Shown: one piece after another, positions 1,514 through 41,971 of the stretch | Layout of the letters: each line of letters opens with the position of its first letter | How positions within the stretch are numbered: the stretch's first letter is position 1 | Assembly (NCBI GenBank): GCA_041694835.1 | Contig: JBGFRZ010000077.1 | Location: 1-42,636, forward strand | DNA from: Ignavibacteria bacterium | GTDB taxonomy: Bacteria > Elusimicrobiota > Endomicrobiia > PHAN01 | DNA: 42,636 nucleotides | Reading direction: 5' to 3' | Program-made: the position numbers and the translations under genes | The notes under the pieces: model-generated | Told to the model about the DNA's origin: nothing | Database searches by the model: none | Seen by the model: only the letters and a program-made list of their open reading frames with translations

Positions 1514-4500
1514 ATGAAAAAATTTAGAAGATTTTCACTATTCGCTATTTGCTATTTGCTATTTGCTGCCCCTCCACCTTTAAGCGCTTCTTTCATTGTA
1601 ACCAGCGGAACGTTTACAATATTAAACCCCGCTATAGTTGAGGTAACAAACGATGTCATCATAGAATCAAATGGCACACTTAATGCAGGCAGCGGCCTTG
1701 TAAATGTTGGTAGACGTTGGGAAAATACCGGGAACTTTATAGGCGGAACATCTACGGTGACATTCTATACAACCGCTGTAAGCACAATAACCGGCGGGAC
1801 GACTTTTCATAGTTTTCGGTGCGAAACGCCAGGAAAACAACTGAGTTTTCTTGCGACTTCAACTCAAACGGTCACAAACAGATTCATATTGACAGGTGCT
1901 CTTGATAATCGGCTCCGACTTCGCTCTACGACGGACGGCACGAGATGGTTCGTTGCGTTTTCTACGACCCAGACGGTAAATTATGTCGATGTGAAAGACG
2001 CATCGGCCCTTGACTTCACCATTACCTGCTTTGGTTCATTAAATTCAGGAAACAACAACGAAAACTGGATTTTCGGTCAGAGCTCTCCTGCAGTTACAAA
2101 TCTTGTTCAGCAAACTTCGGCGGGAACAAATATCCCTTCCGGCGGATGGACAAATAATCCGAACATCATTTCTTCCTTCACACTCACTGATGCAGACAAC
2201 GACAATATAAGATATCATCTTCAAGTAACGACCGTCGCCACCGACGGTTCGGCCGACTGGTCTACAATATGGCATTCAACAATATCCGCCTTTCTTACAC
2301 CGCGCACAACTTCTTACCAATGGCCGACACTTGTGGCAAACACTACATACTGGTGGCGCGTCTGGGCGACGGATACAGTGGGACTGGTTTCAAGCACGGT
2401 CACATATCTTTCCGGCAATCCCGCACTTCCTGCATGTTTAGGGTTTGACAACAGACCGCCGTCGGCAATATCTAACTTAACCGCTCTTACAGGAACACTT
2501 GACGGCGATGTGGTTTTGCGGTGGAGCGCACCTTCAGACGATGGGGCAGCAGAGCCGCTGACAAATGCAACTTATCAAATCAAAGCAGCGACTTTCAATA
2601 TCACATCGGCACTCTATGACTCTGTCACAAACAATCCGCCTTGGACGCACATCGTAGCGATTTCAACTACCGGTGTTACCCCGGGAAGTTTTCAGTCAAC
2701 AGTTATTCGTGGCATTTTATATCCCGGCACTACATGGTTTTTTGCTATTAAAACGATAGATAAGGGAGAAAATGTTTCTACATGGTCGACAGATGGAGTA
2801 AACACCGTAAATTCTGCACCTGCCCAGGATTTACCGCCAAATGCGCCCCCGGGAATAACTGCAACTCCGTCAGGGTCAACAACTATTGATGTTTCCTGGG
2901 ACCTGCCCTCTTTTAGCGGCACTGACGACAGAGACAGATACTGGCTTTACAGCGCGACATTTTCTTTTACTTCGGAGACGACAGCAAATGTCGTTCATAT
3001 AGCGACCAGATCTCATCCATCTGCTTCTTTCACCCACACAGGATTAAGCGGCGGCACCACATATTTTTACCGTGTCAAAACATTAGACCAGGGCAACATA
3101 GGGAACGGTCTCTTTAGCGCCGTTCTTTTTTCGGGTTTGTCAGTTATAACGAGTACAAGACCTGCCGCGGCCGCCCAGTTAAAAGTAACGGTTGTATATG
3201 ACGACCGCTCTGAGTTTAATCAAAACAACTATGGTGTCGTTGACGGAATTGAAGACGCCGACGGAACGGTTGCTTTTTCCTGGCCCAAGGTCGTTGGCGG
3301 CGGAACAATCCAGAATTATTTTATAGAGATTTCATCAGACATAAATTTCAGTTTCTTTAGTTCGTCGGCGACACTTCCTGCAACGGTAAGCACACATACG
3401 GTTGGTGGGCTCTTAAGAGGGGTAAGACACTATGCGCGGGTAAGAGCAAGAAATACCGATGGAGACACGAGCCCATGGACGGCTTCCGACGGAATATATG
3501 TCAACCGAAAAACCATTGATTCTTCTCTGTCCGACTGGACGGGCACCTTTCCCGGAACTATAAATACGCTAACGGTCTCAGGCGGTGATGCCCTCTGGCG
3601 CGACGCAATAGGCGACCAGCGCACAGACAGGCACACTTCAAGCCAACTGGATATTTCTTCTGTTGCAGTTGCAGCCGATGAATATAATTTTTATCTTTTT
3701 GTGGCGTTTGCGTCAACCGTCTCCGCCGGATTTGATGGAAGAAATTTTATTCAAATAATGGTTGACAACGCTCAGACATCTACGGAACGGGTATTTCGCG
3801 GCCTTGGCAATAAATATGAAGATTCTTATGTCGCAAGCCCGGTTCCCTGGGAGTGGCTTTGTGAGATTGTTTCGGGCAATGATGTCTTTAGAGTTGAAGA
3901 TAGTGTGTTTTCAAACAGAAGATTTGGCAAATATTCTGAGCATAACACAAATTATTTCTACGAAGTTGCAATGCCTTTGAGTAATTTGGGTGGCAGAGAA
4001 AGATTTCTCGGAAGGACAGTCAATTTTACAATCGCAACTTTCTGGAACGCCGGTGGCGCCGACGGCTCTATCGGCGACTGGTCAGCAGGGACTAATTCAA
4101 ATATCGTAGATGTGGTTACATCGTCAGGACCAAACACCTGGAACGAGGTTCAAGATAGAATCGTTGACGACTATTTGGCGGTCACTTTTTCCACTCGTGG
4201 AATTGTTACTTCTGCCAGCAGAATAACCGCACCGCCATCAAGTATCCCCGACGAGCCGGAGCCACCGGTAGACGGTATTCCCCCGGCTATACCCTGGGCG
4301 CTGGATTTGTTCCTCTACAACATATTTATTGATGCCTGGCATAACGGCGACCCGACCAACGACGACATCGCAGATACAAACGATTATGGCGGCGATTTCC
4401 AGGGTGTGATTGATAAAGTTGATTACCTGAATGAAATTGGAATAAACATGGCTTACTTCGGGCCGCCTTATCAATTCGGCGGGGGCATCTGGGGATTTAA

Positions 4501-7500
4501 CATAGATGACCCCTATCAGTATAATAGAAAATTCGGCGGAACTTCAAAGTATATTGAAATGATGAAAGTGCTCCGAAACCACAACATAAGAGTAATGAAC
4601 GACTGGGTTTGCGGTCAGGTTGGACACAGCGGCTCGCCCGCCGCTCTGAAAAATCCTGATTTCTTTACGTCCGAACAATTTGGTCATGGAACAAGACAGG
4701 AGTTTGCAGAGGCGCGTGCATATTACTTAAATAATATGATCTGGGCGTTTTCAACCTGCGATGCTTTTAGATACGATAATCCAAAATTCTGGAATTATTC
4801 TTTTGGACCAGAGGCATTTGAGTTCAATCGTGCATTGCGTAAAATATCTGACAGATGGGACCCGCAACTTTTTATTATGGGTGAAATTCCTGAGCAGGTT
4901 GAGGGTTGGGATGGGATAAATGCTTTTACAGGCGGCAAGGGCGATAGCACACACGTTGATGGTGTCGGTGGTTTTGGTGCTATGATGCACGGTGGACAAT
5001 GTATGCGTTCAGGCGGTTATAAAAATAACAGGAACGCTCATATCTGCTCATGGGTCAGGCCCGGCATTGACGCACAAACAACACCCACCGCCCGAACTGG
5101 AATTCAAAATCAACATGTTGCATGGAAAAACCAATGGTCTATTAATCCGATAATGATGGAAAATCACGACGAGCATAGGTTTATAAGCCGGGGCAGAGAT
5201 CAGGTTGCGAACGCCCCATGGCATCAGCAGGTCGGATATATGACCGCTTTTACCGTCGGTGTTTCGCCCATACTTTTTTATGGCGGCGAAGTTGGTCTTG
5301 AGGGTCCTTACGATGGAGGTAATTCCGCCAAGATGGACAGAGGCGGGAATGTCAGACCTATGCCGTTTGAAAGAGTCAATGACCCCACATGGAGTCTCGT
5401 CAGAAACGCTTTAAGAAGGACCGCTCAGGCAAGGATGAATTTTCAGGTATTGAGAGGCAACCCAAAAGCTGGCGGGCGGAGTTGGTATACGGGGGGGCAG
5501 TATGACAATGATGTTTTGGTTTTTGTCAGGCAGTGGGGTGATGGCAATGCCCCCCTGGAGAGGGCCATCGTAATGCTCAACCGCTCAGCAAGTAATGTGA
5601 CTTTAAGCAGTGTCGGGACTGGTAGAGCAAATACAAAATATAAGGATTGGCTTACTGACGAAGTTTTTACAACTGACGCTTCAGGCAATATCGGTTCCAT
5701 TATTGTCAACGCTCATTACGGCAGAATTCTTATTCAAGGCACAGTCGGCAATGCTGCCGCTCCCGACCCTTATGATTGGGGAGACGTTACTGGTACAGTC
5801 ACAAACTCAGCAGGCGCACCAATAGCAAACGCTATTGTAGATATAGACGGCAGGTCGCATTGGACCACAAAAACAGATTCAAATGGTTTCTATTCTATCA
5901 ATGGCGATTTGAAAAAAGTTCTGACAGGTAGTCGTAGAATCCGGGCATGGGCGCCTGGACGCGATATAGTTACTCGCTCGGTAACTATCACTACCGGCAA
6001 TAACAATGTAAGTTTCAGCGCTGCAAGCGGTTTTCCTCTTGCGACGGACAATACCCCGCCCGCTGCACCGACGACTTTGAGCGCCCGTCCACGCAACAAA
6101 GCCGCTATGCTCTTCTGGCAGGCGAACACAGAAAGTGACATTCAGACATATCTGATTTATCGTTCTTCAAACGGACCAATTCCTGACGGTTCAAATCCTG
6201 TGCCGATTTTTGAGGTGTTTAAACCATTTTATTATGACAACAATCTGGACGGAAAATTAGATGGCAATAATAATGTATATGACCGACTGCAGAACGGCAC
6301 CACATTCTGGTACCGCATTCGTGCGGTTGACAGAAACGGCAACAGGTCGGCGCTTTCAAACCAAATCGTAGTTGTTCCAAGAAAAGTAAAGGTAAAATTC
6401 TGGCTGGATACTCGCGGCAGCGGACTTACGGTAAATTCCGCGTCAATAGCAGGAGGGGCTTTGACTTTTAGTAAAAATTACTGGGAACAAGTAGCACTAA
6501 ATTCTAATGGCGACGGGACATTTGAAAGGACTTTTGAGTTTGATGATACAACTTTTCTTGAATATAAATATGTAATAAATGGAACAACATGGGAAGGAAG
6601 TTCGGGAAATCTTTTTCTGGATGGACCACAAGGAGAGGGAAACCGCGGGGAACTGATGGATGACGGCATTCCCGATGTTGAAATAGTTGATGAAGGCGGT
6701 GGTAATATGATTATAGCCGATGTATGGCGGTATTACAACGACCGTCCGCCAAGGGCGCCGGCGGGACTTCAAATTTCAGCAGGACCTAATGTGCTCACCG
6801 TTGGATGGGCTAAAAATGCCGAGCCGGATTTGTTGCATTATACTATTGAACGTTCAACATGGAGTTCGGGTTTTTCAGGCAGCACAATTTTTGTTAATAT
6901 AGACAAGAACCAAATCAGTTATGACGACACAAATCTTATCAACAACAACACTTACTATTACAGAGTTTGGGCTATTGACAGAAGAAATAATATAAGCGGT
7001 TGGTCGTCAACGGTCTCCGCATTTCCAAGGGCCGTTGACACAACCCCGCCAGTGGCCCCAAGCGGGTTGTTCGCCTATGGTGATGGAGCAAACGGATTAA
7101 GCGGGGTTGTAGTTAGATGGAATCGAAACTTTGAAGGCGACCTCGCCGGATACAACATCCATCGCTCAACGGAGAGCGATTTTACTCCTGCCTCCGGCAA
7201 CAAACTAAACTCTGTCTTGCTCTCGCCCACTACACCTTCATATACTGATGCTAATATCGTCACAGGAACACGGTATTTTTACAGGGTCACTGCTGTTGAC
7301 GACTCTACCAATGTATCAGAGCCATCTTTGCAACTTGCGGTCAGGTTACTACCTATAACATTTCATGTAGACATGGGAAATATCAATCCTAACAATAACA
7401 GCGTTCAAATTACCGGAAACACACTGCCCCTGCTCGGTTGGACGAGCGGACTTGAAATGTCACTTCTTTCAGGGACTACTTTCCACATTACAATCGGATT

Positions 7501-9736
7501 ATTAGCAGGGACGACAATTCAATACAGATATGCATATAACAATTTAAGTGTTCGTGAGCAGGACTTCGCCACGATAACTAAAAATCGCGAGTGGACTGTT
7601 CCCTCGTCAACTACTACGAAATATGACGATTGGGAAGAAAATCCTGAGATGGTAGCCGGACTCAGAGTTTATCCGGGAGTAAACCGCGCCTATCTAACCT
7701 GGAATAAAAATACAACGGCGGAGGACCTTGCGGGATATAATATCTATCGTTCTGTTCCGCCGTCAACAACACCTACACTGAAAGTTAATTCTGTTCCTAC
7801 AAGCACTCAGCCATATAATGTAGGGGGGCTTGTCCCAAATGTCACATATTATTTTTCCGTCAGAGCGGTTGATTCGGGGAGCATCGTCCTTGAAAGCACC
7901 GCAGCGGCAATAGTTTCCATATGGGTAAGTTCTCCCGTCTGGGTTCATTTTGGTTCGCCATTTTCTGTGGGTCAGGCGAGCGCTCCATGGGGAGATTCAA
8001 ACAGAATCAGACTCTTTCTTGCGATTCAAACTTCAACCAATGTTGCCGTTTGGAGTCTACCAGAACGTGCAGATGTTACAAGCGGCAAAATGGAGATGAC
8101 AGCATCCTCGGCAAATAACACATATAGCGCTATAGTGCCTCTTATGCGTGGTCAGTACTACAATTTTCTTTTCTTCGCCGAGACAACCGGCTCACCACCT
8201 GCGGGACTTGCCCCAAACACAGAGTATTTTGACACCGTCCCCGGCACAGGGACATTTCTTGTCTCCGGTTCTTCAATATCTATTACATCGCCTGGTGCAG
8301 GTGTGGAAGGAGTTTTTAATCCTGTGGGACCAAACCGCGACTCAAGACGACTTTTATTTTTGCCGCACTCACTTACTGCTGGTTCAACTATTTATGTCTT
8401 TGCTAACTTTGGGTCAACTCCAACGGCCCCAACTCTTATTGATGCGATACCGGGAAACAATAGAATCACCCTTCGCTGGTCGGCTCCTTATGGTTCGCCG
8501 TGGGTCAACCCGTCTCCCGAACTAACAGCTAATACTCCGGTTGGCACAGGCGAAGCAATGAAGGCAGCAGATGTTGTCGCAGGAGGTGTTTATCAAATTT
8601 TCGTCACCACATATAACCATGGAAGTTTCGCTTCGTACATTGCAAGTGCCACTGTTTCAGGTCAAACATTTGAGCATACATTTTCGGGACTAACAAACGG
8701 CGTCACATATTATTATCTCATGCGTTCTTCTGACACATTCAGGGGTCTGGTCGGGAACAACTTTAGTGTTCTTTCGGCGACAGTTAGTGCGGCACCAACG
8801 GCAGCATATATTGTGACAAAATTCAGAGTCAACCGTGGCGCTGGATCTTTGTGGAAGTCGGTCCGAAAAACCATCGCTGTTCAGGAAGGGGTTTCAGTAG
8901 CGGTATGGGATGCCGATGACAGGTCAAATATGACGCCGACGGGACGGGCGGTAAATATGCTCGCTCCGCCGGACGATGATGCGACCGAGCAGGAGTTTTC
9001 GGTTAGTTTAGTTCCTGGAACAACTTACAATTTTATACTTTTTGCTTATTCAACATTTACAATTTCAGGGTTGATAACTAATGCAACCTATTTTGACACA
9101 GTGCCAAATAGTGGCTCGGGCGGTATGGTGACATCTACTTCCACTATTTCAATTACCGGTCACGGCAGGGCGTGGTGCGGCCCCGTCGGTTCGGGGCAAG
9201 ATGCAAGACGACTACTATGGGTCCCAACAAATTTACCGTCAGGCGCCACACTTTATGTGTATTGCAACTTCGCCTCAAGTCCGAGTGCGTCGTCTGTTTC
9301 GGCAATCCCTGTAAGTTCTTTCTCGGTTCAACTCGACTGGACGCCTTTTGGAGCATGGGGAACAGGAGGCGAGGCGCTCAAAGCTGCCGATGTTATAGCG
9401 GGGGGACATTATTATGTTTGGCGTTCAAGCGTGAGTTCATCAGGGCCATGGGTTCTGTGGGTCTCTACAAACATCCGCAGTTGGCTTGATGACGATAGAA
9501 ACGCACCGGGCGATAATTTAGGTATGGTGACGGGAGTAGAATACTATTATGTCGTAGTGTCGTCGGATGCTTATACCGGTGATTTTATTCCGAATATGTA
9601 TCGTATGGGCGCCCCTGAATTTTCTTCAGCCGACGCATCTGCTATACCAAGACACGAGGTACCGACTTATTTTAGAGTGGATGAAAAGAGAAAAACTATA
9701 TTTGAGCTCGTTTGGAAGCGATTTTTTGGATTGTAG
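1514..9736 (+). CDS. Giant secreted multidomain alpha-glucan-active protein: beta-rich N-terminus, FN3 domains, DOMON/CBM9-like domain, divergent GH13 catalytic domain, carboxypeptidase-regulatory-like domain, two CBM20-like domains, two copies of an unknown module
   Basis: Signal peptide MKKFRRFSLFAICYLLFA. GH13 motifs GGDFQGVIDKVDYL, DAFRYD, IMGE, ENHD, PILFYGGEVG (about 4300-5740). Many W...Y...YYYRV.A.D FN3 motifs. CBM20-like VKFWLD...EYKYVING and ITFHVDM...QYRY. Confidence 0.85.
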   Translation: MKKFRRFSLFAICYLLFAAPPPLSASFIVTSGTFTILNPAIVEVTNDVIIESNGTLNAGSGLVNVGRRWENTGNFIGGTSTVTFYTTAVSTITGGTTFHSFRCETPGKQLSFLATSTQTVTNRFILTGALDNRLRLRSTTDGTRWFVAFSTTQTVNYVDVKDASALDFTITCFGSLNSGNNNENWIFGQSSPAVTNLVQQTSAGTNIPSGGWTNNPNIISSFTLTDADNDNIRYHLQVTTVATDGSADWSTIWHSTISAFLTPRTTSYQWPTLVANTTYWWRVWATDTVGLVSSTVTYLSGNPALPACLGFDNRPPSAISNLTALTGTLDGDVVLRWSAPSDDGAAEPLTNATYQIKAATFNITSALYDSVTNNPPWTHIVAISTTGVTPGSFQSTVIRGILYPGTTWFFAIKTIDKGENVSTWSTDGVNTVNSAPAQDLPPNAPPGITATPSGSTTIDVSWDLPSFSGTDDRDRYWLYSATFSFTSETTANVVHIATRSHPSASFTHTGLSGGTTYFYRVKTLDQGNIGNGLFSAVLFSGLSVITSTRPAAAAQLKVTVVYDDRSEFNQNNYGVVDGIEDADGTVAFSWPKVVGGGTIQNYFIEISSDINFSFFSSSATLPATVSTHTVGGLLRGVRHYARVRARNTDGDTSPWTASDGIYVNRKTIDSSLSDWTGTFPGTINTLTVSGGDALWRDAIGDQRTDRHTSSQLDISSVAVAADEYNFYLFVAFASTVSAGFDGRNFIQIMVDNAQTSTERVFRGLGNKYEDSYVASPVPWEWLCEIVSGNDVFRVEDSVFSNRRFGKYSEHNTNYFYEVAMPLSNLGGRERFLGRTVNFTIATFWNAGGADGSIGDWSAGTNSNIVDVVTSSGPNTWNEVQDRIVDDYLAVTFSTRGIVTSASRITAPPSSIPDEPEPPVDGIPPAIPWALDLFLYNIFIDAWHNGDPTNDDIADTNDYGGDFQGVIDKVDYLNEIGINMAYFGPPYQFGGGIWGFNIDDPYQYNRKFGGTSKYIEMMKVLRNHNIRVMNDWVCGQVGHSGSPAALKNPDFFTSEQFGHGTRQEFAEARAYYLNNMIWAFSTCDAFRYDNPKFWNYSFGPEAFEFNRALRKISDRWDPQLFIMGEIPEQVEGWDGINAFTGGKGDSTHVDGVGGFGAMMHGGQCMRSGGYKNNRNAHICSWVRPGIDAQTTPTARTGIQNQHVAWKNQWSINPIMMENHDEHRFISRGRDQVANAPWHQQVGYMTAFTVGVSPILFYGGEVGLEGPYDGGNSAKMDRGGNVRPMPFERVNDPTWSLVRNALRRTAQARMNFQVLRGNPKAGGRSWYTGGQYDNDVLVFVRQWGDGNAPLERAIVMLNRSASNVTLSSVGTGRANTKYKDWLTDEVFTTDASGNIGSIIVNAHYGRILIQGTVGNAAAPDPYDWGDVTGTVTNSAGAPIANAIVDIDGRSHWTTKTDSNGFYSINGDLKKVLTGSRRIRAWAPGRDIVTRSVTITTGNNNVSFSAASGFPLATDNTPPAAPTTLSARPRNKAAMLFWQANTESDIQTYLIYRSSNGPIPDGSNPVPIFEVFKPFYYDNNLDGKLDGNNNVYDRLQNGTTFWYRIRAVDRNGNRSALSNQIVVVPRKVKVKFWLDTRGSGLTVNSASIAGGALTFSKNYWEQVALNSNGDGTFERTFEFDDTTFLEYKYVINGTTWEGSSGNLFLDGPQGEGNRGELMDDGIPDVEIVDEGGGNMIIADVWRYYNDRPPRAPAGLQISAGPNVLTVGWAKNAEPDLLHYTIERSTWSSGFSGSTIFVNIDKNQISYDDTNLINNNTYYYRVWAIDRRNNISGWSSTVSAFPRAVDTTPPVAPSGLFAYGDGANGLSGVVVRWNRNFEGDLAGYNIHRSTESDFTPASGNKLNSVLLSPTTPSYTDANIVTGTRYFYRVTAVDDSTNVSEPSLQLAVRLLPITFHVDMGNINPNNNSVQITGNTLPLLGWTSGLEMSLLSGTTFHITIGLLAGTTIQYRYAYNNLSVREQDFATITKNREWTVPSSTTTKYDDWEENPEMVAGLRVYPGVNRAYLTWNKNTTAEDLAGYNIYRSVPPSTTPTLKVNSVPTSTQPYNVGGLVPNVTYYFSVRAVDSGSIVLESTAAAIVSIWVSSPVWVHFGSPFSVGQASAPWGDSNRIRLFLAIQTSTNVAVWSLPERADVTSGKMEMTASSANNTYSAIVPLMRGQYYNFLFFAETTGSPPAGLAPNTEYFDTVPGTGTFLVSGSSISITSPGAGVEGVFNPVGPNRDSRRLLFLPHSLTAGSTIYVFANFGSTPTAPTLIDAIPGNNRITLRWSAPYGSPWVNPSPELTANTPVGTGEAMKAADVVAGGVYQIFVTTYNHGSFASYIASATVSGQTFEHTFSGLTNGVTYYYLMRSSDTFRGLVGNNFSVLSATVSAAPTAAYIVTKFRVNRGAGSLWKSVRKTIAVQEGVSVAVWDADDRSNMTPTGRAVNMLAPPDDDATEQEFSVSLVPGTTYNFILFAYSTFTISGLITNATYFDTVPNSGSGGMVTSTSTISITGHGRAWCGPVGSGQDARRLLWVPTNLPSGATLYVYCNFASSPSASSVSAIPVSSFSVQLDWTPFGAWGTGGEALKAADVIAGGHYYVWRSSVSSSGPWVLWVSTNIRSWLDDDRNAPGDNLGMVTGVEYYYVVVSSDAYTGDFIPNMYRMGAPEFSSADASAIPRHEVPTYFRVDEKRKTIFELVWKRFFGL

Positions 9737-9867
9737 CGGCGGCTTTGAAAGGAAAATTGCCATTTGAATTTTTATTTTTATATTCCAATCTCTCGGATAT
9801 AAGACGCGGCCCGCGGCAAAGGGCAGGAGGTGAGAAAAGTTATGAATAGAAAAGTAGAGAAAGAAGT

Positions 9868-9972
9868 AAGAGCACAAGAGCATAAGAACACAAGTGCACA
9901 AGAACACAAGGCGCAAGAGCACAAGGACAGAGGTTTTGACTTGCGCACTTACACCTTAAGCACTTGTGCACT
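9868..9972. repeat. GCACAAGW-type 8-mer tract followed by inverted copies
   Basis: gagcacaagagcataagaacacaagtgcacaag... followed by cttgcgcacttacacctt and gcacttgtgcact. Confidence 0.75.
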
Positions 9973-9991
9973 AATAAAAGGAGGTAATGTT

Positions 9992-22908: not shown

Positions 22909-22917
22909 GGAGGGAAA

Positions 22918-32634: not shown

Positions 32635-32636
32635 TT

Positions 32637-33235: not shown

Positions 33236-34276
33236 ATGCTCAAAAAATTGTTTGTTGAAGTTGTTGTAGTAGTTGTTTTTTTGACGGGTGTTTTTGCGAG
33301 TATATCGGAAGCGTGTTGTTCCCACTGTATAACAGTGGCAAAGTTGAAGAAAAGGTGTGCAGCAGAAAAAACGTCTGCGACTCCAGCCGCACCGAAAATT
33401 ACTTCACCTGTGGTTAGTGAAAAAGGTGTTGAGTTCGTATATGCGAATCCAAAAGCGAAATCTGTGTTTGTTGCAGGAAGTTTTAACGACTGGAACTCAT
33501 CAAAAGATGCATTGGTTATGGATAAAAAGGGCGTCTGGAAAATTCTGATGGCGGTCAAACCGGGCTCTCATCAGTATAAATTCGTCGTCGACGGAAACTG
33601 GCTTCCCGACCCGTCCAATCCCAACACGACCGACGATAGTTTCGGCGGAGTCAACTCGGTTGTGGAAGTCAGGCAAGCGCCCAAATCAGAACCCACAAGA
33701 GGCGTCCCGCAGATTTCTCCCGGCGGGGTTAGGTTCACATATAAAAATCCGGCGGCGAAGGCGGTTTTCGTTGCCGGGGAGTTCAACAACTGGAGTCAAG
33801 CATCCGATCCTATGCTCAAACAAAAAGATGGCTCATGGCTTTTGATTAAAAAACTGCCGGCCGGAAAACATCAGTACAAATTTATCGTCGACGGAAACTG
33901 GCTTCCCGACCCGTCTAATCCCAATACGACCGACGATAGTTTCGGCGGAGTCAACTCGGTTATTGAGATAGCAAGAGCTGGATCGCAGGGGGGTGGTGCT
34001 GTTGGTCCGAGAAGGACAAAAGACGGCGTTGAGTTTACATATATAAATCCCAATGCTCAGAGCGTTTCTATCGCAGGAAGTTTCAACAACTGGAACACAA
34101 GAGCCAATGCTATGACAAAAGATAAAGACGGGAGATGGAAAGCATCGGTATCCTTGAGGCCGGGTAAATACCAGTATAAGTTTGTCGTCGATGGAAACTG
34201 GTTGGAAGACCCGTCGAATCAGAACTTCTCGGATGACGGCTACGGCGGGAAAAACTCTGTTGTCGAAGTGAAGTAA
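33236..34276 (+). CDS. Exported protein with three tandem CBM48-like domains
   Basis: GGAGG RBS and a conventional signal peptide. Three copies of A..V.(V/I)AG.FN.W...G..QYKF.VDGNWL.DPSN...GG.NSV. Confidence 0.9.
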   Translation: MLKKLFVEVVVVVVFLTGVFASISEACCSHCITVAKLKKRCAAEKTSATPAAPKITSPVVSEKGVEFVYANPKAKSVFVAGSFNDWNSSKDALVMDKKGVWKILMAVKPGSHQYKFVVDGNWLPDPSNPNTTDDSFGGVNSVVEVRQAPKSEPTRGVPQISPGGVRFTYKNPAAKAVFVAGEFNNWSQASDPMLKQKDGSWLLIKKLPAGKHQYKFIVDGNWLPDPSNPNTTDDSFGGVNSVIEIARAGSQGGGAVGPRRTKDGVEFTYINPNAQSVSIAGSFNNWNTRANAMTKDKDGRWKASVSLRPGKYQYKFVVDGNWLEDPSNQNFSDDGYGGKNSVVEVK

Positions 34277-34279: not shown

Positions 34280-34575
34280 ACAGAGAAGAGAGAACAGCGC
34301 ATAGAGAATAGAGGATAAAGATGAGAGATGAGAGGAGAGAGGTGAGAGAATAGCGTATAGAGGATAGAGGATAGCAAACAGCAAATAGCGAATAGTGGTC
34401 GGTGACTGGTGACTTGTGGCTGGTGGCTGGAGGAAATGAGCAACGAGCCACGAGCCACTAATCCTCTGTTCTCTGCTGCACTTGTGCTCTTGTGCACTTG
34501 TGCTCTGCCACTCTGTCCTCTGTTCTCTCTCCTCTGTTCTCTGACTTGTGCCCTTGTGCACTTCTGCTCTTATGC
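34280..34575 (-). repeat. Full modular cassette in minus orientation (intergenic)
   Basis: The reverse complement reads GCACAAGW, CAGAGRA, GTGGCTC, CACCAGY, CTATTYG, CCTCTAT, CTCTCAY, like the plus copies at 24767 and 30463. Confidence 0.92.
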
Positions 34576-34597: not shown

Positions 34598-36940
34598 ATG
34601 AAAAAAACACTAATGATTTTTTTGCTTTTGTTCGGTTCGGCTGTTGTCGCTTTTGGACTTCAAATATACGACCTGCCTACTATAGAAATAGAATCTCCCG
34701 GTGAATACATTTTGCCTGTAGAAGTTTTTCTTAAAGATGAAAAATCCGGGCATCTGAATATAACTTTTTCCGAAGGTAGTATCGTCAAGCCGAGGTTTGA
34801 TAAAAAATTAAACGCCGTCGTTTTCTCGGTTCCGAATGCGGCAGAAGGGCTTGAGAAGTTAAACATGAGAGCATCCGCAGGAGACGAAACGGTTGAAGCA
34901 AATATTTTAAGTAGGGTTAAAAAATCCCGCAAAATGACTTTGAAATACAGACCCCAGGAAGCCGTCAAAAAAGTTTTTCTGGCCGGCGATTTCAACTCGT
35001 GGAATTCGAACAATCTGCCGCTTTTAGGTCCTGATAAAAACGGGGATTATTTCATTGAATTAAAACTCTCTCCGGGCGCATACAAATATAAGTTTGTCGT
35101 CGACGGAAACTGGCTTTCCGACCCGTTGAATCCCGAATCAGTCCCCGACGGATTTGGCGGGAAAAACTCTGTTTTGAAAATCGGCACCGCATCAACGGGG
35201 AAATGGCACACGGTTTCAAGACAAGCCGGTAAAATTGTATTAAAATATATCATTGACGAAAATATGACACCTATTAATCCTGCGACGCTCAAAATCGCCG
35301 CCGCAGGCAATAATATCATTACAAATCAAAATTACAATTTTTCTGCCGCCTCTCATGAATTGGTCATAAAAGATTCTCATAACAGCAAAGCCATAAGAGT
35401 AAATGCAATGGATTTATCGGGTAACATCCTCCCCGAGTTTGTTGTAAGAGAACCTGATGCCTGGCGTGACGGCACAATATACTTCGCGTTTACGGACAGA
35501 TTTTTTAATGGCGACAAATCAAACGACATGCCCTCGCCTGATACAAGTGTTGAAGCGGCAGCGAACTATCAGGGCGGTGATTTCAGAGGGATAATCGGGA
35601 AGATAAACGACGGATATTTCAAAAATCTCGGCGTGAATGTTTTGTGGATTTCTCCTGTTGTAGAAAATCCAAACGGCGCCTTTGTGGATGCGTTGCCGCC
35701 GCATAAAAAATTCACTGGTTATCACGGTTATTGGCCAGTTTCTTTTTGGAAAGTTGACAAAAGATATGGAAGCATGGAAGAACTCAAAGAACTCGTCGCC
35801 ACCGCTCACAAGAATGGCATGAAAGTCATATTTGACATGGTTTTAAACCACGTTCACCAAGAAAACGAACTTTATAAAAAAAATCCTGAATGGTTTTCCA
35901 AGTTAGAACTGCCTGATGGAAGAAAAAACATCCGTCTTTTCGACGAACGTCCTTATGATACATGGTTTGACCAATTCCTTCCGGACATAGATTATGAAAA
36001 CAATCCCGCCGCCGTCAGATATATGGTCGACAACTGCATTTGGTGGATAAAAGAGACGAACTGCGACGGTTTCCGCCTGGATGCGGTAAAACACATGCCT
36101 ATGGAGTTTTGGATAGAACTTCGCAAACGCGTAAGGCAAGAAATAGAGATTCCACAAAAAAAGATGTTTTATCTCGTCGGAGAGACGATTTCTTCGCGCG
36201 AAAAAATAATGGAGTTCGTTGGCTATGATAAACTGGATGGACAGTTTGATTTTCCGATTTACTGGGCGATAAAAGATGTCTTTGCCTGGGAAAGCCGCGG
36301 ATTCGACACTCTTGAAGAAGAGAGGAAGCAATCTGATAGTCAATATAGCGGCTCTCTTATGTCGCCGCTTTTGGGCAATCACGATTTTGCACGTTTTACG
36401 GCTTTTGCCGACGGAGCAATACCGCCCGGCACTGATGAAAAAGCCCGCACATGGCAGAACCGTCCGGAAATAACAAATCCGGAAACATATAAAAAACTTA
36501 AACTTGCTTTCACATTTTTGCTAACTCAAGCAGGCGTCCCGATGATTTACTACGGCGACGAAATAGGCCTTACGGGAGCTGGCGACCCCGACAACAGAAG
36601 GATGATGAAATTTGACGCTCAACTTTCAAGACATGAAAAGGAGTTACTTGAATATGTTTCCCGACTAAATAAATTCAGGCACGACTCGAAAGCCGTCAGA
36701 TACGGCGAACACCACACGCTCCTCGTCGGAAAAGATATATATGCTTATCTTAAAAATTACTTCGGTGAAGTTGCAATTGTAATACTAAACAAGTCGGATA
36801 AATCTGAGAGATTATCGCTTATGCTTCCAGAATTCGTTAAAGTTAGAAAATTGAAAGATGTATTTACGAACAGACGCGTTGAGTTAAATAATCTGAAGAT
36901 TCCGCCGAGAACCGCTATGATATTAAGGGGTGGAGGTTAA
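34598..36940 (+). CDS. Exported GH13 alpha-amylase-family enzyme with CBM48-like domain
   Basis: Own RBS (AGGAG) and signal peptide. VFLAGDFNSW...YKYKFVVDGNW, GGDFRG, GYHGYW, DMVLNH, DGFRLDAVKH, GET, GNHD, PMIYYGDEIG. Confidence 0.93.
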   Translation: MKKTLMIFLLLFGSAVVAFGLQIYDLPTIEIESPGEYILPVEVFLKDEKSGHLNITFSEGSIVKPRFDKKLNAVVFSVPNAAEGLEKLNMRASAGDETVEANILSRVKKSRKMTLKYRPQEAVKKVFLAGDFNSWNSNNLPLLGPDKNGDYFIELKLSPGAYKYKFVVDGNWLSDPLNPESVPDGFGGKNSVLKIGTASTGKWHTVSRQAGKIVLKYIIDENMTPINPATLKIAAAGNNIITNQNYNFSAASHELVIKDSHNSKAIRVNAMDLSGNILPEFVVREPDAWRDGTIYFAFTDRFFNGDKSNDMPSPDTSVEAAANYQGGDFRGIIGKINDGYFKNLGVNVLWISPVVENPNGAFVDALPPHKKFTGYHGYWPVSFWKVDKRYGSMEELKELVATAHKNGMKVIFDMVLNHVHQENELYKKNPEWFSKLELPDGRKNIRLFDERPYDTWFDQFLPDIDYENNPAAVRYMVDNCIWWIKETNCDGFRLDAVKHMPMEFWIELRKRVRQEIEIPQKKMFYLVGETISSREKIMEFVGYDKLDGQFDFPIYWAIKDVFAWESRGFDTLEEERKQSDSQYSGSLMSPLLGNHDFARFTAFADGAIPPGTDEKARTWQNRPEITNPETYKKLKLAFTFLLTQAGVPMIYYGDEIGLTGAGDPDNRRMMKFDAQLSRHEKELLEYVSRLNKFRHDSKAVRYGEHHTLLVGKDIYAYLKNYFGEVAIVILNKSDKSERLSLMLPEFVKVRKLKDVFTNRRVELNNLKIPPRTAMILRGGG

Positions 36941-36977: not shown

Positions 36978-37340
36978 ATGGGCTTGACTCATGTGACTGT
37001 AAGTTTGAAGGCGAATCAAACGGCGAAAGAAAAATATGAGGCCGATTTTTTGGTTGATACAGGAGCGACCGATTGTTTGGCGCCAGCATCAGCATTAGAA
37101 AAAGCGGGCATCGTCCGTAGAGGAAAAATGACTTATGAGTTGGCTGACGGAAAGAAAACCGTGTATGATTTTGGGTTGGTTGAGATTGAGTTTATGGGGG
37201 AATTGACCTCCGGTCGGGTTATATTTGGGCCAGATGACGCCGAGCCAATATTAGGAGTTACCGCGCTGGTATCAGTCGGTATCTTGGTCGACCCTGTCGA
37301 GCAAACTCTTAAACGTATGCCTGCTATACCGTTGAAATAA
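36978..37340 (+). CDS. Small clan AA (retropepsin-like) aspartyl protease family protein
   Basis: FLVDTGAT catalytic motif, LADG flap, PILGVTAL. GAGGTG RBS. Confidence 0.85.
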   Translation: MGLTHVTVSLKANQTAKEKYEADFLVDTGATDCLAPASALEKAGIVRRGKMTYELADGKKTVYDFGLVEIEFMGELTSGRVIFGPDDAEPILGVTALVSVGILVDPVEQTLKRMPAIPLK

Positions 37341-37373: not shown

Positions 37374-39542
37374 TCAATCACCGCAAATCTCAATCTCCAG
37401 AACGACTTCGTCGGTGGGTGAGATTTCTTGCGAGATGGTTATAAATTGAAACTTGCTTTCGACGCAACCAGAAAATATCTTATTCGTATACCGCACTTCT
37501 TGATTAGTTCCATTGATTGAGAGCTTCTTTGGTTTCAAGTCGACAGCAAAAATGTTTATTGTAACATTTTGTCTTTGCGACGCATTGGGATAGTTGCCCT
37601 CCGCTTTTTCTATTTTTATTTGAAGCATATTATCCGTTTTACGCGCTAAAATTTTGCGTGTCAGATACTTGTTCCTCAGATATTCCTCGGTGTGGCCGTC
37701 GTCTTCATAGTAAACAAACCCGCTGTCTTTGTCCGGGAAAATATTTAACTCGATGTTTTTTATTTCTTCAGAAAGCGACTCCCCAACCGTCACCGCAGGT
37801 ATTATACTTGCTTTTTTTATGTAGACCGGTATAATTTCAAGGGGTATTTTTATTTTTTTTACAACCGGCCCGTTTACAACTTCATTGGTCTCAAGCGAAA
37901 TCCACTCGCCTTTTGGGAAATAAACTTCGCTTTCAAACACTTCTCCCGGACCGTGGGCGGGTGCAATAAGAAGCGAGTCGCCTATTAGATATTCTTCATC
38001 GTATTTGTAAGCATTTTCATCTTGCGGGTATTCTATGTAAAGCCCGCGAATTAGAGGAATGCCGAAATCGTGACAATCGCGGGCAAGTTTATAAAAATAA
38101 GGATTTAAAGCGTATCTGATTTTTACATATTTTCTAAAAATCTCAATCGCCCTTTGGGAATAATTCCATATGTCCCTCGACGCCCCCGACGAATGTGTCC
38201 TAAGAACGGGGGAAAAACAACCGAACTGGACCCATCGTATAAAAAGTTCTTCGGGAATGACTTCTCCGAGAAATCCGCCTATGTCGTGAGACCAGTAACT
38301 CGCTCCGACATTGCCGCCTTTATGGGTAAACGAGATTTCATATTTTAATGTCTCAAAATTTGAGTAAGTGTCGCCTGAAAACTGTAGCGGAAATTTGTGG
38401 GAACCCACGCCGCCCCATCGGGAAAGTATGAGCGGTCTTCTGTCGTCGGATGTCCTTTTTGCGGCTTCAAAATAAAATCTGTTAAGCCACAACTGTGAGT
38501 TCAAATCCATTATGCCGTCAGTGGCTCCCCATCCGTCGACCCACCAGAAATCAATACCGTCATCCAAAAATTTTTTAAATATTTCATCAATCCATGCATT
38601 GACATATCTGTCGTCGTTCCATTTGATTCTGAATTCATTTATATCAGGGGTTCTGTTTTTTATTTTCTCCTTGAACGGGTCATCATGAGGCAGGACATCG
38701 GATATGCCGTAGCCGGGATGGTCGTTTAAGCAGCATTTGAGACGCATATCTTTTAACTTGCGAATAAATTTTGACGGCTCTGGAAAAAATTTACTGTTCC
38801 ATTCGTATCCATTCCACACGTGTTTTCTCCAATCGGTGTCTATTACGAATACATCAAGCGGTATGCCGTTTTCTTTTAACTTGTCTATTACAGAAAGAAT
38901 CTCTTTGTCCGAAAATTTATACCACCTTGAATACCAGTAACCGAAAACCCATCGTGGAACAAGTGGAATTTTTCCGAAAAGATTTACAAAATCGCCTAAC
39001 GCATTTTTATAATCCATTCCATAGCCAAACAGATACCAGTCCTGAAAGTTCCAGTCGCTTCTTTTCTTAACCCATTTTGTTTTTTTGTCCCATAAAAATT
39101 CGCAGTGATTCCTGTAGACGAAAAGACCGTTTTTTGAGATTAATCCATCTGTGAAGTTTTCGGCCGTCTTGCCGTGTGGAAACTTGTAAAGGTCGAGCAT
39201 TGCTCCGCCGATATTTTCTTCATCGATTATGCCCGGTTCCCAGATATATTCTCCGTTTAAAGAATTAAAAATTCTGAAAGAGAGATTGCCTATGTCGAAC
39301 GCTCTCCCATCGGGGACAAGCGAAAATTCAAAGTGGGTGGTTTTGATTTGAAAGGGATTGTTATTTTTTATGTCGTGGGGCACTTCGACGCTGAAGTTTG
39401 GTTCAAGTATTATAGGATTTTCTTCGTCAAAAACCCCACTCGTGGAGTATTCTGCTCTTATAAGAGACGAAGAAAATAATGTTACTCTATAATTAGAACC
39501 GATTAAATATACAGGCGGCCGCCGACTGATTTCTTTTATCAT
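37374..39542 (-). CDS. GH31 alpha-glucosidase-family enzyme (no signal peptide)
   Basis: PRWVFGYWYSRW, IPLDVFVIDTDW, DFWWVD, FSGDT, WSHDIGGF, RWVQFG, YYEDDG. Confidence 0.92.
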   Translation of the reverse strand: MIKEISRRPPVYLIGSNYRVTLFSSSLIRAEYSTSGVFDEENPIILEPNFSVEVPHDIKNNNPFQIKTTHFEFSLVPDGRAFDIGNLSFRIFNSLNGEYIWEPGIIDEENIGGAMLDLYKFPHGKTAENFTDGLISKNGLFVYRNHCEFLWDKKTKWVKKRSDWNFQDWYLFGYGMDYKNALGDFVNLFGKIPLVPRWVFGYWYSRWYKFSDKEILSVIDKLKENGIPLDVFVIDTDWRKHVWNGYEWNSKFFPEPSKFIRKLKDMRLKCCLNDHPGYGISDVLPHDDPFKEKIKNRTPDINEFRIKWNDDRYVNAWIDEIFKKFLDDGIDFWWVDGWGATDGIMDLNSQLWLNRFYFEAAKRTSDDRRPLILSRWGGVGSHKFPLQFSGDTYSNFETLKYEISFTHKGGNVGASYWSHDIGGFLGEVIPEELFIRWVQFGCFSPVLRTHSSGASRDIWNYSQRAIEIFRKYVKIRYALNPYFYKLARDCHDFGIPLIRGLYIEYPQDENAYKYDEEYLIGDSLLIAPAHGPGEVFESEVYFPKGEWISLETNEVVNGPVVKKIKIPLEIIPVYIKKASIIPAVTVGESLSEEIKNIELNIFPDKDSGFVYYEDDGHTEEYLRNKYLTRKILARKTDNMLQIKIEKAEGNYPNASQRQNVTINIFAVDLKPKKLSINGTNQEVRYTNKIFSGCVESKFQFITISQEISPTDEVVLEIEICGD

Positions 39543-41971
39543 TTATCCATTGATACGAGAAACATCGCTGATCTCGGCGGCATTCTTACAGAGACCTTTC
39601 CGTTTTTTACTGAATATGTCTTCGCGGGTTTCTCGGGAGTTTTGATTTTCTTTCTTGAAAAGTTATATCTGCCGTCGCTCTCGGGCGAATTGAATATCAC
39701 TACTTTTTCAGAATATACGTCGAGAAGTTTTGAGTTATTGGGAAGAGATGCTTTGAACACCACTTCATTTTTTTTCTCAGAAGCGTTTACGACAATAAAC
39801 GCAGAGCGGTTTCCTTTTCTTCTGGCAAAAACAAGAATGTTTTCAGTATCGTCGGTGTGAACGCTTTCATAGATTCCGCTCTGAAGTTCGGGATAAGTAT
39901 TTCTTATCGCTATCAATTTTTGATAGTGTTTGAATATCTCGTCCATAAACACCCTGTCATCGCTGTCATAAGGTTCAAATTCTTTCCATGTCATCGGCTC
40001 TCTGCAGAAAGGGTCGTCGGAGCCCCACATTCCGGCTTCCGTCCCGTACCATATCATCGGTGCACCTGGAAGTGTAAATTGAAGGGCGCTGACGAGTTTT
40101 AGAAGTTCATATATTTCCTTCGGTGGTCTTTCCGTTTTGTAGTAGGGATTGTAATCGCCGGTATCTTGCGGATTTAGACGATTTCTCTTATCGTAGTGTC
40201 TGCCGGGATTATAGAGCATAGATACCGCTCTGTCCGTGTCGTGGCTGTCAAGAAGATTCTGCTGCACAAAATTTACCTGATAGGGATAGAGCGCCAGGAG
40301 TCGTTTGATTTCTCCGTCGAACTGCGAGGGATTCATCTGCTTATCTGAAATAAATTTCAGTATGGTTTTGACGAAAGGATAGTTCATCTGGCAGTGCAGA
40401 AGTTTTTCATTCAGCCATTCGGGAGATTCGCCCCATAGTTCGCCTACAATCAGAGCGTCGGGATTTATCGATTTAACGAGCTTTGACCACTCAACCCAAA
40501 AAGGCATTGCGACGTTATCAACGACATCCAGCCGCCATCCGTCTATGCCGTCGGAAGGGTCGCCGTCACCGTTCGGGTCCATCCATCTTCTTGTGATAGC
40601 AAATATATGTTCTTTCGGACCTTTTACAAGACCGTCGCCGTCTTCCCTGAATTCGGGCAGTCCCCCGAATCCCGCCCAGCCGCGATATCCTTTCCCTCTG
40701 TCTGCTTCTCTCATAAATAAATCCCAATCGGTAATATCAAACCAGTCGGCGTACTTTGATTTCTCCCCGTGTTTTTTAACATCTTCAAAAGCCCAGAATT
40801 TTTCTCCCGAGTGATTGAATACTCCGTCGATAATAACCCTGAACCCTTTTGCTCTTGCGGTTTTTAAAAAATCAAGAAACAATCTATCTGTCTTCGTCCA
40901 CTTCCACGTTTTCGGATCGTCGGTCTCGCCTTTCAGTTCGGCGATGTCGCCCTTGAATCCGAGATTGTCGTCTACGTGTCTGTAGTCGGAGGTGTTGTAT
41001 TTGTGTGGTGAGTCCGCTTCAAAAACGGGAGTCAGATAAATCGCGGTTACGCCGAGTTCTTTGAGATAATCTAATTTTTTTATCAAACCCAGTATGTCCC
41101 CACCGAATCGCCTCCCCCAGACAACATCATAGAAACTTCCTTTCTCCGAAGGATGAACTTTTGCAAAATCCCATGTCCAAGGCAGGAAGCCGTCCGGATT
41201 ATTTGTGGTGTCGCCATCGTAAAATCTGTCAGGCATTATTTGATACCACACAGCGTTCTTTGCCCAGTCGGGCGTTAAAAACTTCGGAGAAAGAGAAGCG
41301 GTAAAATGGTTTTCAGCAGGATATAAAACTTTCTTTGCTTCGTCTATAATAGCAAAACGGTATTTTAAGGATTTTTTTTCTATCGGAATATCAATAAAAG
41401 CCGAATACCAATCAAATCCGATATACGATTTAACTTTCCGCATTTTTACGCTGTCGCCATCATCGAAAACGATTTTAACCTCAGATGCGTCATCTTCAAG
41501 AGTTCTAATTTTAATCTCAGCTAAGTCCTTCATTATAACATTGAAATGCTCAATAGAATTGCTGTCGTGCTTTAACGCATCGGTATTTATTTCATTCTCG
41601 ACTGCCTCGCCGTACATCGCGCCGCTTTCGCCCACAACGATGACCGAGTTGAATCCACCGAAACCATCTTCTTTTCTGTATTTAACGTCGGCTTTCGGGT
41701 CTTCGAGCCATTTTGTGCCGTTGATGACAAACTTATAATAATGCAGACCTTCTTTCAATTCCAGAGTCAGCGCGAATTTCCCGTCCGGAAGTTTTTTGAA
41801 TAGGTCTTTGGTGCTGTTCCAGTGATTAAACGAACCCGCTGCGGCGATTGAATTTATGCTTTCGCCGGGTTTGGGCTCATAAATAAAAGTAACCCTTTGG
41901 GTTTGGGCGTTCAGACGGACAAAAACAATCATGGCAAGACAAACGGCAAAGAAAACTTTTCTTGTGCTCAC
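39539..41971 (-). CDS. Exported GH13 neopullulanase/cyclomaltodextrinase-like enzyme with CBM48-like and CBM34-like N-terminal domains
   Basis: AGGAGG RBS then GTG at 41971 (ORF open to 42022) and a signal peptide. TPDWAKNAVWYQIMPDRF, GGDILG, DGVFNH, DGWRLDV, GELW, DSHD. Stop overlaps the GH31 start (ATGA). Confidence 0.93.
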   Translation of the reverse strand: MSTRKVFFAVCLAMIVFVRLNAQTQRVTFIYEPKPGESINSIAAAGSFNHWNSTKDLFKKLPDGKFALTLELKEGLHYYKFVINGTKWLEDPKADVKYRKEDGFGGFNSVIVVGESGAMYGEAVENEINTDALKHDSNSIEHFNVIMKDLAEIKIRTLEDDASEVKIVFDDGDSVKMRKVKSYIGFDWYSAFIDIPIEKKSLKYRFAIIDEAKKVLYPAENHFTASLSPKFLTPDWAKNAVWYQIMPDRFYDGDTTNNPDGFLPWTWDFAKVHPSEKGSFYDVVWGRRFGGDILGLIKKLDYLKELGVTAIYLTPVFEADSPHKYNTSDYRHVDDNLGFKGDIAELKGETDDPKTWKWTKTDRLFLDFLKTARAKGFRVIIDGVFNHSGEKFWAFEDVKKHGEKSKYADWFDITDWDLFMREADRGKGYRGWAGFGGLPEFREDGDGLVKGPKEHIFAITRRWMDPNGDGDPSDGIDGWRLDVVDNVAMPFWVEWSKLVKSINPDALIVGELWGESPEWLNEKLLHCQMNYPFVKTILKFISDKQMNPSQFDGEIKRLLALYPYQVNFVQQNLLDSHDTDRAVSMLYNPGRHYDKRNRLNPQDTGDYNPYYKTERPPKEIYELLKLVSALQFTLPGAPMIWYGTEAGMWGSDDPFCREPMTWKEFEPYDSDDRVFMDEIFKHYQKLIAIRNTYPELQSGIYESVHTDDTENILVFARRKGNRSAFIVVNASEKKNEVVFKASLPNNSKLLDVYSEKVVIFNSPESDGRYNFSRKKIKTPEKPAKTYSVKNGKVSVRMPPRSAMFLVSMDK

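Follow-up and report, generated by a model that had tools for sequence, protein, structure and literature searches.

Two paradigms describe the uptake of glycans through the bacterial outer membrane, the SusCD-type TonB-dependent transporters and the LamB-type specific porins. Here we describe an α-glucan locus of the phylum Elusimicrobiota whose content points to the use of starch or glycogen and in which neither type of gate is found. The locus lies on contig JBGFRZ010000077.1 of assembly GCA_041694835.1, a stretch of 42,636 nucleotides that we analyzed at its full length and call the window; its 23 open reading frames (ORFs) are numbered p1 to p23 (Table 1). Two of them, p16 and p17, are predicted to be large outer-membrane barrels of new families, and they are our best candidates for the passage of α-glucan chains.

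The arrangement recalls the Sus system and other polysaccharide utilization loci of Bacteroidota, since it co-localizes a predicted surface amylase, non-catalytic putative glycan-binding proteins, a barrel step, a periplasmic neopullulanase-type GH13 enzyme and a final α-glucosidase. Unlike Sus, however, it has neither a SusC-type transporter nor SusD; p16 and p17 are plugless and belong to no described family, and uptake across the inner membrane would be carried out by an ATP-binding cassette (ABC) importer. In place of SusE/F-type lipoproteins, the putative binding proteins use CBM48 domains, CBM9-like domains and type-IX-like C-terminal domains (CTDs), and the candidate regulators are GGDEF proteins.

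With the enterobacterial maltose system (LamB, MalE, MalFGK2 and MalS), the locus shares MalF/MalG-type permeases, a binding protein, periplasmic α-amylase-type enzymes and, in a relative, a MalK/UgpC-type ATPase. It differs from that system in that LamB is missing from both the window and the genome, the binding protein is a predicted lipoprotein and there are many surface components. LamB has 18 strands, whereas the predicted barrels of p16 and p17 have about 22 to 24.

A third likeness is to the cargo/shuttle pairs of type IX secretion in F. johnsoniae and P. gingivalis, in which the gene of a CTD protein is followed by that of a PorV/PorP-family barrel. The pairs described here differ in that they belong to Elusimicrobiota, consist mostly of PorV/PorQ-type barrels with type-A-like CTDs and provide one barrel per cargo. 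Unlike the full type IX system, this genome yields no PorU, no clear GldK and just a distant SprA-like protein. To our knowledge, reviews place type IX secretion as specific to Bacteroidota or the FCB group. We found no description in the literature of such a gateless starch locus or of CTD/PorV modules in this phylum.

A conserved locus without SusCD or LamB

The window is one whole contig of a 1.9-Mb assembly that is 97% complete and comprises 89 contigs. Its genes form a near-unidirectional row from position 1514 to 36940, followed by two minus-strand genes that reach 42022. We scanned the 23 ORFs against Pfam and NCBIfam (E ≤ 0.01) and found three GH13 domains, one GH31 domain and seven CBM48 or AMPK1_CBM domains, one each in p17, p18, p20 and p23 and three in p19, precisely the numbers given in a first-pass annotation that was made by a model from the sequence alone. 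The three CBM20-like domains of that annotation did not survive: the sole CBM_20 match is sub-threshold and lies in p2 at approximately residues 1947-2036 (E 0.0014, 18.8 bits against a cut-off of 23.3). Its sugar ABC importer was recovered as two BPD_transp_1 permeases and one SBP_bac_1 protein, and its five outer-membrane barrels as p6, p8 and p15, which are assigned by family, and p16 and p17, which are assigned by AlphaFold2 models. The several non-catalytic secreted proteins that it described correspond to p3, p4, p5, p7, p14, p18 and p19.

None of the 23 ORFs matches SusC or SusD, LamB, Plug or TonB_dep_Rec, MalK or LacI in these scans, so the absence of SusCD, LamB and LacI from the window, as first proposed, stands. 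Across the whole genome, searches for SusD_RagB and for LamB (PF02264) each returned 0 matches, and their respective controls from B. thetaiotaomicron and E. coli were positive. The genome does encode three TonB-dependent barrels, all outside the window contig on contigs C10 and C52, as well as two LacI matches, both on other contigs. None of the five barrels of the window belongs to a TonB-dependent or LamB family.

To examine gene order, we compared the window proteins by tblastn with relatives chosen from a profile search of the p17 family in 400 other sampled genomes of the phylum. In G061, a genome of the same family and another genus, p2 to p19 are collinear with the window at 35-88% identity, and the p19 orthologue is followed by p22, p23 and then p20 orthologues. 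The more distant G010, which belongs to a different family, retains p2 to p19 in window order at 31-70% identity up to the end of its contig. Shorter contigs preserve parts of the same order: that of G026 (20 kb) has the GGDEF pair and p11 to p20 arranged as in the window, with p23 after them, and that of G125 (10 kb) carries p15 to p19, p22 and p23. Neither p1 nor p21 has a counterpart in these four loci. The gene set is thus conserved together in other Elusimicrobiota. Of the two outcomes that the first-pass annotation had named as refuting its proposal, barrels of a TonB-dependent or LamB family and a gene set conserved nowhere else, neither is observed, and the domain content supports its reading as a 40-kb cluster for α-glucan (starch or glycogen) utilization without SusCD or LamB. 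The window contains no Rfam family at gathering thresholds.

Table 1. Predicted proteins of the window, with positions counted from its first nucleotide. Scores are in bits.
Protein	Position	Strand	Predicted product	Family score
p1	1-885		3' part of an ORF running off the contig start; Gly/Ser/Thr-rich; no family match	
p2	1514-9736	+	Giant exported multidomain GH13 protein, 2740 aa; signal peptide	
p3	9992-11095	+	Exported, no assigned family; paralogous to p4 and to the C-terminal modules of p2	
p4	11592-12683	+	Exported, no assigned family; paralogue of p3; G061 orthologue 60% identical	
p5	12903-15554	+	Non-catalytic exported protein ending in a type-IX-like CTD	
p6	15551-16696	+	PorV/PorQ-family outer-membrane barrel, after p5	NF033709 146.5 (cut-off 90)
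p7	16693-18909	+	Exported; N-domain common to p14 (CBM9-like lead), fn3, CTD	
p8	18919-20010	+	PorP/SprF-like barrel, after p7	PF11751 38.9 (cut-off 22.3)
p9	20088-21398	+	Membrane diguanylate cyclase; GGEEF and RxxD I-site; transmembrane-like segments	GGDEF 143
p10	21301-22641 (start tentative)	+	Second GGDEF protein; GGEEF motif	
p11	22852-23847	+	MalF/UgpA-type ABC permease (BPD_transp_1); orthologues 70-84% identical	
p12	23739-24698	+	MalG/UgpE-type ABC permease (BPD_transp_1)	
p13	24753-26234	+	Sugar-binding protein (SBP_bac_1) with lipobox ISGC	
p14	26249-27505	+	Exported; CBM9-like domain (lead) and CTD	TIGR04183 28.2 (cut-off 23)
p15	27502-28719	+	Divergent PorV-like barrel, after p14	NF033709 43.7 (below 90)
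p16	28716-30461	+	Predicted plugless ~24-strand barrel of a new family; candidate glycan gate	
p17	30475-32634	+	N-terminal CBM48 fused to predicted ~22-strand barrel, new family; candidate glycan gate	
p18	32648-33139	+	Lipoprotein with a single CBM48; lipobox Cys invariant in 5 orthologues	
p19	33236-34276	+	Exported, three CBM48	AMPK1_CBM 182.8 (3 stretches)
p20	34598-36940	+	Exported CBM48-GH13 protein, α-amylase type	GH13 174.9
p21	36978-37340		Small clan-AA (retropepsin-like) aspartic protease between p20 and p22	TIGR03698 57.8 (cut-off 57.35)
p22	37374-39542	-	GH31 α-glucosidase; no signal peptide (N terminus read by eye)	
p23	39539-42022	-	Exported CBM48-GH13 protein, neopullulanase/cyclomaltodextrinase type	GH13 170

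Two large barrels of new families

We regard p16 and p17 as the best candidates for the outer-membrane passage of α-glucan chains because they are the sole locus-specific barrels and one of them is fused to a starch-binding module. AlphaFold2 models computed from family alignments predict for p16 a barrel of about 24 strands that begins right after the signal peptide (pLDDT 75.9) and for p17 a CBM48 sandwich that a linker of low confidence joins to a barrel of about 22 strands (pLDDT 66.6). The CBM48 is present in all seven members of the p17 family. No TonB_dep_Rec, Plug or other Pfam barrel family was matched in the 14 members of the p16 family or the seven of the p17 family at E ≤ 1, and the sole other match over a Pfam cut-off in the two families is a CsgG-like N-domain in one p16 relative. 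Both proteins lack a plug and leave no room for a TonB box. The two are single-copy in the genome and show no detectable homology to each other (hhalign probability 0.3%). Separately, we note that the p16 orthologue of G010 (P0023, contig C2), at 698 aa, additionally carries a CsgG/LpoB/TolB_N-like periplasmic domain at its N terminus.

Both families are rare. Among 5.8 billion proteins, p16 has 13 relatives and p17 six full-length ones, and the names attached to the closest homologues (Elusimicrobia bacterium HGW-Elusimicrobia-1, Endomicrobiia, Elusimicrobiota) confirm the phylum surmised at first pass. The p16 and p17 homologues of HGW-1 have consecutive locus tags. Of the 400 further genomes sampled from the phylum, five contain full-length p17: G061, G125, G010, G026 and G396 (in the last split over two contigs). 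The remaining p17-profile matches, among the matches listed, cover the CBM48 part only. In the contigs of all four relatives as sequenced, p16 and p17 stand between the importer genes with p14-p15 on one side and the CBM48 proteins p18 and p19 on the other.

Structural comparison places both models among large barrels in a general way. Foldseek aligns them with TonB-dependent barrels and the FimD usher at TM-scores of 0.35-0.5, with rmsd values of 9-17 and approximately 10% identity; for p16 against TonB-dependent (BtuB-type) barrels, the TM-score is ~0.47. In a VIA structural search, the usher pores PapC and FimD rank top for p16 (Z 16.2 and 16.0 over 370-376 residues), with many other barrels close behind, and we did not adopt the identification of p16 as an usher. 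The p16 barrel is like those of PapC/FimD ushers and TonB-dependent proteins in size and unlike them in its identity (~8-11%), in matching no family and in carrying no plug or accessory domains, so that the resemblance may be one of large barrels in general.

These matches bear on an alternative in which p16 and p17 are protein-export or anchoring devices, that is, an usher-like pore for p2, p3 and p4 or an anchor displaying CBM48, and sugars enter through general porins. The top rank of the ushers agrees with this idea, as do the CsgG-like periplasmic domain at the N terminus of one p16 relative and the fact that p2, p3 and p4 have signal peptides and no sorting domain that Pfam or NCBIfam detects. 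Neither p16 nor p17, however, has an usher family match or the N- and C-terminal domains of ushers, and other large barrels match p16 structurally nearly as well. Gene order also argues against it: p16 and p17 lie 19 kb from p2 but keep their place beside the importer and CBM48 genes in all four relatives, and the 20 kb of G026 include p13 to p20 and p23 but not p2, though that contig is cut. We consider this alternative, the main rival of our reading, rather unlikely, and continue to favor p16 and p17 as the putative glycan gate.

The first-pass annotation had envisaged passage through CBM48-assisted barrels in general. That picture fits p17, which carries a CBM48, and does not extend to the other four barrels, which have none; likewise, sugar passage is retained for p16 and p17 as candidates and given up for p6, p8 and p15, which are better read as cargo partners.

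Exported proteins with C-terminal domains and their partner barrels

The genes for p6, p8 and p15 each lie directly downstream of a gene for a CTD protein. In p5, residues 802-911 match FlgD_ig, CHU_C, Por_Secre_tail and the C-terminal part of PorZ/PorU, with a TIGR04183 score of 24.7 bits in the genome scan; its partner p6 ends in a C-terminal Phe and gives weak Toluene_X/FadL matches, and the p5-p6 pair is kept in G061 and G010. The CTD of p7 also scores 24.7 bits against TIGR04183 (cut-off 23), and the N-domain of this protein is 34% identical to that of p14. For p14, look-alikes in the Atlas are carbohydrate-binding clusters and CBM9_1 plus Por_Secre_tail clusters (0.92-0.98), from which the CBM9-like reading is drawn; by sequence, the N-domain has no match in the PDB. 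The p14-p15 pair is kept in relatives. Although p15 falls below the PorV cut-off, the alignment of its orthologues matches the p6 family with an hhalign probability of 99.1% (E 6e-19, 247 columns); for p8 against the p6 family, this probability is 83.9%.

The same arrangement recurs throughout the genome, which contains 29 PorV-family matches, 11 of them over the cut-off. Taking the union of TIGR04183 matches and matches to the C-terminal part of the PorU model, we obtained 23 distinct CTD ORFs. A PorV-family match lies at most 1.5 kb downstream on the same strand in 18 of the 23, and a nineteenth, p7, precedes the PorP-like p8. The cargo of one such pair, on contig C6, is a subtilase (protease). 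The pairing therefore tracks the sorting domain rather than sugar, and the module is general.

In Bacteroidota, type A cargo is shuttled by PorV, and the secretion of type B cargo depends on PorP/SprF-like barrels, which are often encoded beside this cargo and bind it once it has reached the surface (PMC12618676, PMC9143113). By analogy, the most likely role of p6, p8 and p15 is that of partners or anchors of secreted surface cargo, not that of sugar channels.

The contrary view is that all five barrels are sugar-uptake channels, in which case the PorV-like barrels, with their FadL fold, would conduct maltodextrins with the aid of neighboring binding proteins. FadL proteins are indeed substrate channels, the PorV family has a FadL-type fold that is echoed in the weak matches of p6, all five barrels are conserved within the α-glucan locus, and SusD and LamB, the other known sugar components sought, are missing from the genome. 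Against this view, the pairing follows the CTD genome-wide even where the cargo is a protease, a single genome of the phylum can have as many as 40 PorV-family matches, and only one barrel of the locus, p17, bears a CBM48. We judge it improbable that all five barrels are sugar channels, and hold to the reading of p6, p8 and p15 as cargo partners.

Regarding the machinery that would serve these pairs, the genome encodes a 1697-aa ORF (C72:16156-21249), directly after LptF and LptG, that matches SprA/Sov in three stretches (137.7 bits, E 2.6e-40), short of the equivalog cut-off of 200 bits; it is probably a distant homologue of this type IX translocon. Among 41 sampled genomes of the phylum, the PorV family is matched in 38 at E ≤ 1e-20 and in 30 over the cut-off; by these profile matches, the PorV/PorQ family is strongly expanded in Elusimicrobiota. 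Our literature search found no account of type IX secretion or CTD/PorV modules in Elusimicrobiota, and type IX secretion in Elusimicrobia is not treated in the available portions of PMC7031533 and PMC12204202.

Enzymes, accessory proteins and candidate regulators

The GH13 family is marked by a nucleophile Asp in region II, an acid/base Glu in region III and the Asp of region IV. By family criteria, p2, p20 and p23 are GH13 proteins with predicted activity, and regions II and IV were identified in all three. The domain of p2 is divergent (60.6 bits in Pfam): it keeps region II (AFRYD) and region IV (MMENHD), its region III reads by eye as MGEIP, and its region I is degenerate (DWVCGQ). This domain is embedded in a long protein composed of an N-terminal repeat domain, four fn3 domains, the GH13 domain, CarboxypepD_reg, Ig-like domains and two C-terminal modules resembling p3 and p4; orthologues in G061 and G010 are 54-59% identical. 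Relatives of the p2 N-terminal domain (window 1589-2833, residues 25-440) occur at 25-38% identity, often in multiple copies, in large ORFs on contigs C53, C77, C28, C52, C41, C66, C84, C81 and C44, several of which also hold long ORFs with a C-terminal-domain match. The domain appears to be a common module of the giant surface proteins of this organism.

In p20, regions I, II and IV are intact, and the best solved relatives are the α-amylases 4e2o (222.7 bits) and 5a2b, whereas those of p23 are TVA II/neopullulanase (278 bits). Both proteins have signal peptides. The GH31 protein p22 has none and is therefore probably cytoplasmic; its best solved relative is 7wj9 (308.8 bits). A periplasmic CBM48 relay and a cytoplasmic GH31, as first proposed, are consistent with these signal-peptide features and with the lipobox of p18. 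The p19 gene contains 300-nt internal DNA repeats (family D17).

For p3, the ORF is listed as 9830-11095, and an ordinary signal peptide follows the ATG at 9992; the protein is conserved in G061 and G010. Neither p3 nor p4 has a Pfam or NCBIfam match or anything useful among solved structures, and their Atlas look-alikes (fn3, DUF6273) are weak, at ≤ 0.85. The position of the GGDEF proteins p9 and p10 is kept in G061, G010 and G026, and we regard the two as candidates for the regulatory role that a LacI-type repressor would otherwise have.

The ABC importer and its ATPase

Of a MalEFGK2-type importer, the window holds the two permeases and the binding protein and lacks the ATPase. In G061, a gene for a UgpC/MalK-type ATPase (C21:126095-127186, 476.8 bits) lies between the p23 and p20 orthologues, upstream of the p23 orthologue and divergent from it. 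The window contig stops 614 nt past the start of p23 (42023-42636). The absence of MalK may be an assembly gap, because G061 has an ATPase within its locus, the window contig ends at that place and we found no close copy on the other contigs. That the window has no MalK, as had been noted at first pass, is thus correct as an observation, although it may not hold for the locus as it stands in the organism.

The importer also speaks to whether the locus might instead make or remodel an extracellular α-glucan matrix under the control of cyclic diguanylate (c-di-GMP), with the large barrels as polysaccharide exporters; two GGDEF cyclases are conserved within the locus, and exopolysaccharide export systems also have large barrels and carbohydrate-binding proteins, but no glycosyltransferase or synthase domain occurs in the 23 ORFs, a binding-protein-dependent importer, a kind of system that imports, sits at the locus center, and three exported hydrolase-type GH13 proteins and one GH31 are present, and we reject this explanation as very improbable.

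A four-module model for α-glucan feeding

Starting from the domain content, barrel families, CTD/PorV pairing and synteny described above, we predict the topology of the proteins, their binding partners and the direction of transport, and arrange them in an α-glucan feeding locus of four modules, a model in which we place slightly better than even confidence. In the first module, surface capture and cleavage would be performed by the giant GH13 protein p2 with its accessory proteins p3 and p4 and the non-catalytic proteins p5, p7 and p14, each of the last three anchored through its CTD by p6, p8 or p15, respectively, which would hold it at the cell surface or deliver it there. In the second, p16 and p17 probably provide the passage through the outer membrane and the CBM48 proteins p18 and p19 would act with them; the N-terminal CBM48 of p17 should face the periplasm. 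In the third, p20 and p23 would trim the chains in the periplasm and the MalEFG-type importer of p11 to p13 would take up the products, which p22, as the fourth module, would hydrolyze in the cytoplasm. The membrane proteins p9 and p10 are candidate regulators of the whole.

We also put forward, more tentatively, a specific form of this model that we think rather more apt to be wrong than right. Here p17 and p16 would together form a new TonB-independent, plugless glycan translocon in which the CBM48 domains of p17, p18 and p19 pull the chain or hand it over, and display of the capture proteins would fall to a reduced type-IX-like system consisting of a distant SprA and one PorV paralogue per cargo, with no sortase and no GldKLMN motor.

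Several observations weigh against the four-module model or its specific form. The models of p16 and p17 are of moderate confidence, as their pLDDT values indicate, and large plugless barrels would leak unless their loops close them. The best structural matches of p16 are usher protein pores, which agree with a role in protein export no less than with one in sugar import. For the PorV-family barrels, sequence alone leaves a channel role possible given their FadL fold. The p7-p8 pair departs from the Bacteroidota pattern, because the p7 CTD scores as type A by TIGR04183 and only weakly by CHU_C (17.6 bits), whereas PorP partners in Bacteroidota serve type B; moreover, p8 is under the NCBIfam PorP cut-off (TIGR03519, 32.8 bits against 90.55).

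Components of a complete type IX system were also sought with little success. We did not find the PorU sortase in this 97% complete genome: all 19 NF033707 matches cover just the CTD of the model itself (positions 962-1092), and none is over the cut-off. Of the Gld core, GldK and GldM were the parts sought. The GldK scores, just 38 and 34 bits, fall on a generic FGE-sulfatase protein of 285 aa, and GldM had no match in the genome, in a search whose positive control was also silent.

The remaining points concern import and hydrolysis. The assembly contains 0 matches to OB_MalK, and its best hit, on C26 (221.8 bits), is just 37% identical to the G061 ATPase; we rejected the C26 protein as the missing MalK for this reason. 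Finally, the nearest solved relative of p22 is an α-1,3-glucosidase, presumably one specific for nigerooligosaccharides (PMC9061262) rather than a maltase, and therefore the end product need not be maltose.

Apparently translated heptamer and octamer arrays

The 5' regions of almost all genes from p3 to p18 contain a succession of tandem arrays of the units CACAAGWG, CAGAGRA, GTGGCTC, CACCAGT and GCTATTY, which span window positions 9860-34545 (for example, 12694-13005, 15556-15824, 26238-26518 and 27512-27940). Such arrays are a feature of the genome at large: a genome-wide run of TRF returned 722 arrays of period 7 and 314 of period 8, whereas periods 6 and 9 yielded 45 and 84, and period-7 arrays occur on 66 of the 89 contigs.

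The GCTATTY-type arrays encode the hydrophobic core of signal peptides. Those with at least three copies lead into an open frame of at least 150 codons in 21 of 33 cases, compared with 0 of 33 in the antisense control. In all nine array-preceded window genes, an ATG just past the previous stop is in frame with the mature protein, and in eight of the nine it is the first ATG in the 181-440 nt from that stop to the mature part; p14 is the exception, with one out-of-frame ATG that precedes it by 5 nt. Elsewhere in the genome, 32 array clusters contain an ATG, and the first one reads in frame in 27. These in-frame upstream ATGs suggest that the arrays are translated into extended leaders of low complexity, the odd N-terminal peptides of these genes, together with the signal-peptide core.

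The leaders of p14 (26236-26530) and p15 (27510-27950) are near-identical over their first ~300 aligned columns, and that of p15 has an extra block of 56 nt (8 x 7) of heptamer units, which suggests recent duplication or conversion followed by slippage. In G010 and G026, the same slots hold arrays of different units, and G061 has few arrays. Reversed array blocks are also found in front of genes that do not require a signal peptide or that possess one already. A repeat of 61 nt, identical in both copies (100%; family D19), lies within array blocks of opposite orientation at 22830-22890, between p10 and p11, and at 34462-34522, between p19 and p20.

Heptanucleotide coding repeats switch genes such as those for NeuO and the H. 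influenzae HMW adhesins, and the pentamer repeats of Neisseria opa offer a parallel. For the arrays described here, phase variation and slippage-tolerant coding are both possible.

Implications

The locus holds all the other parts of a starch system and neither of the paradigm outer-membrane gates, and it points to two rare barrels without a described family, p16 and p17, as the candidates for that step. The modules of a CTD gene followed by a PorV-like gene are abundant here outside the group in which type IX secretion is usually placed, apparently without the sortase and the motor. They bear on the evolution of type IX secretion and on the minimal form in which it may work.

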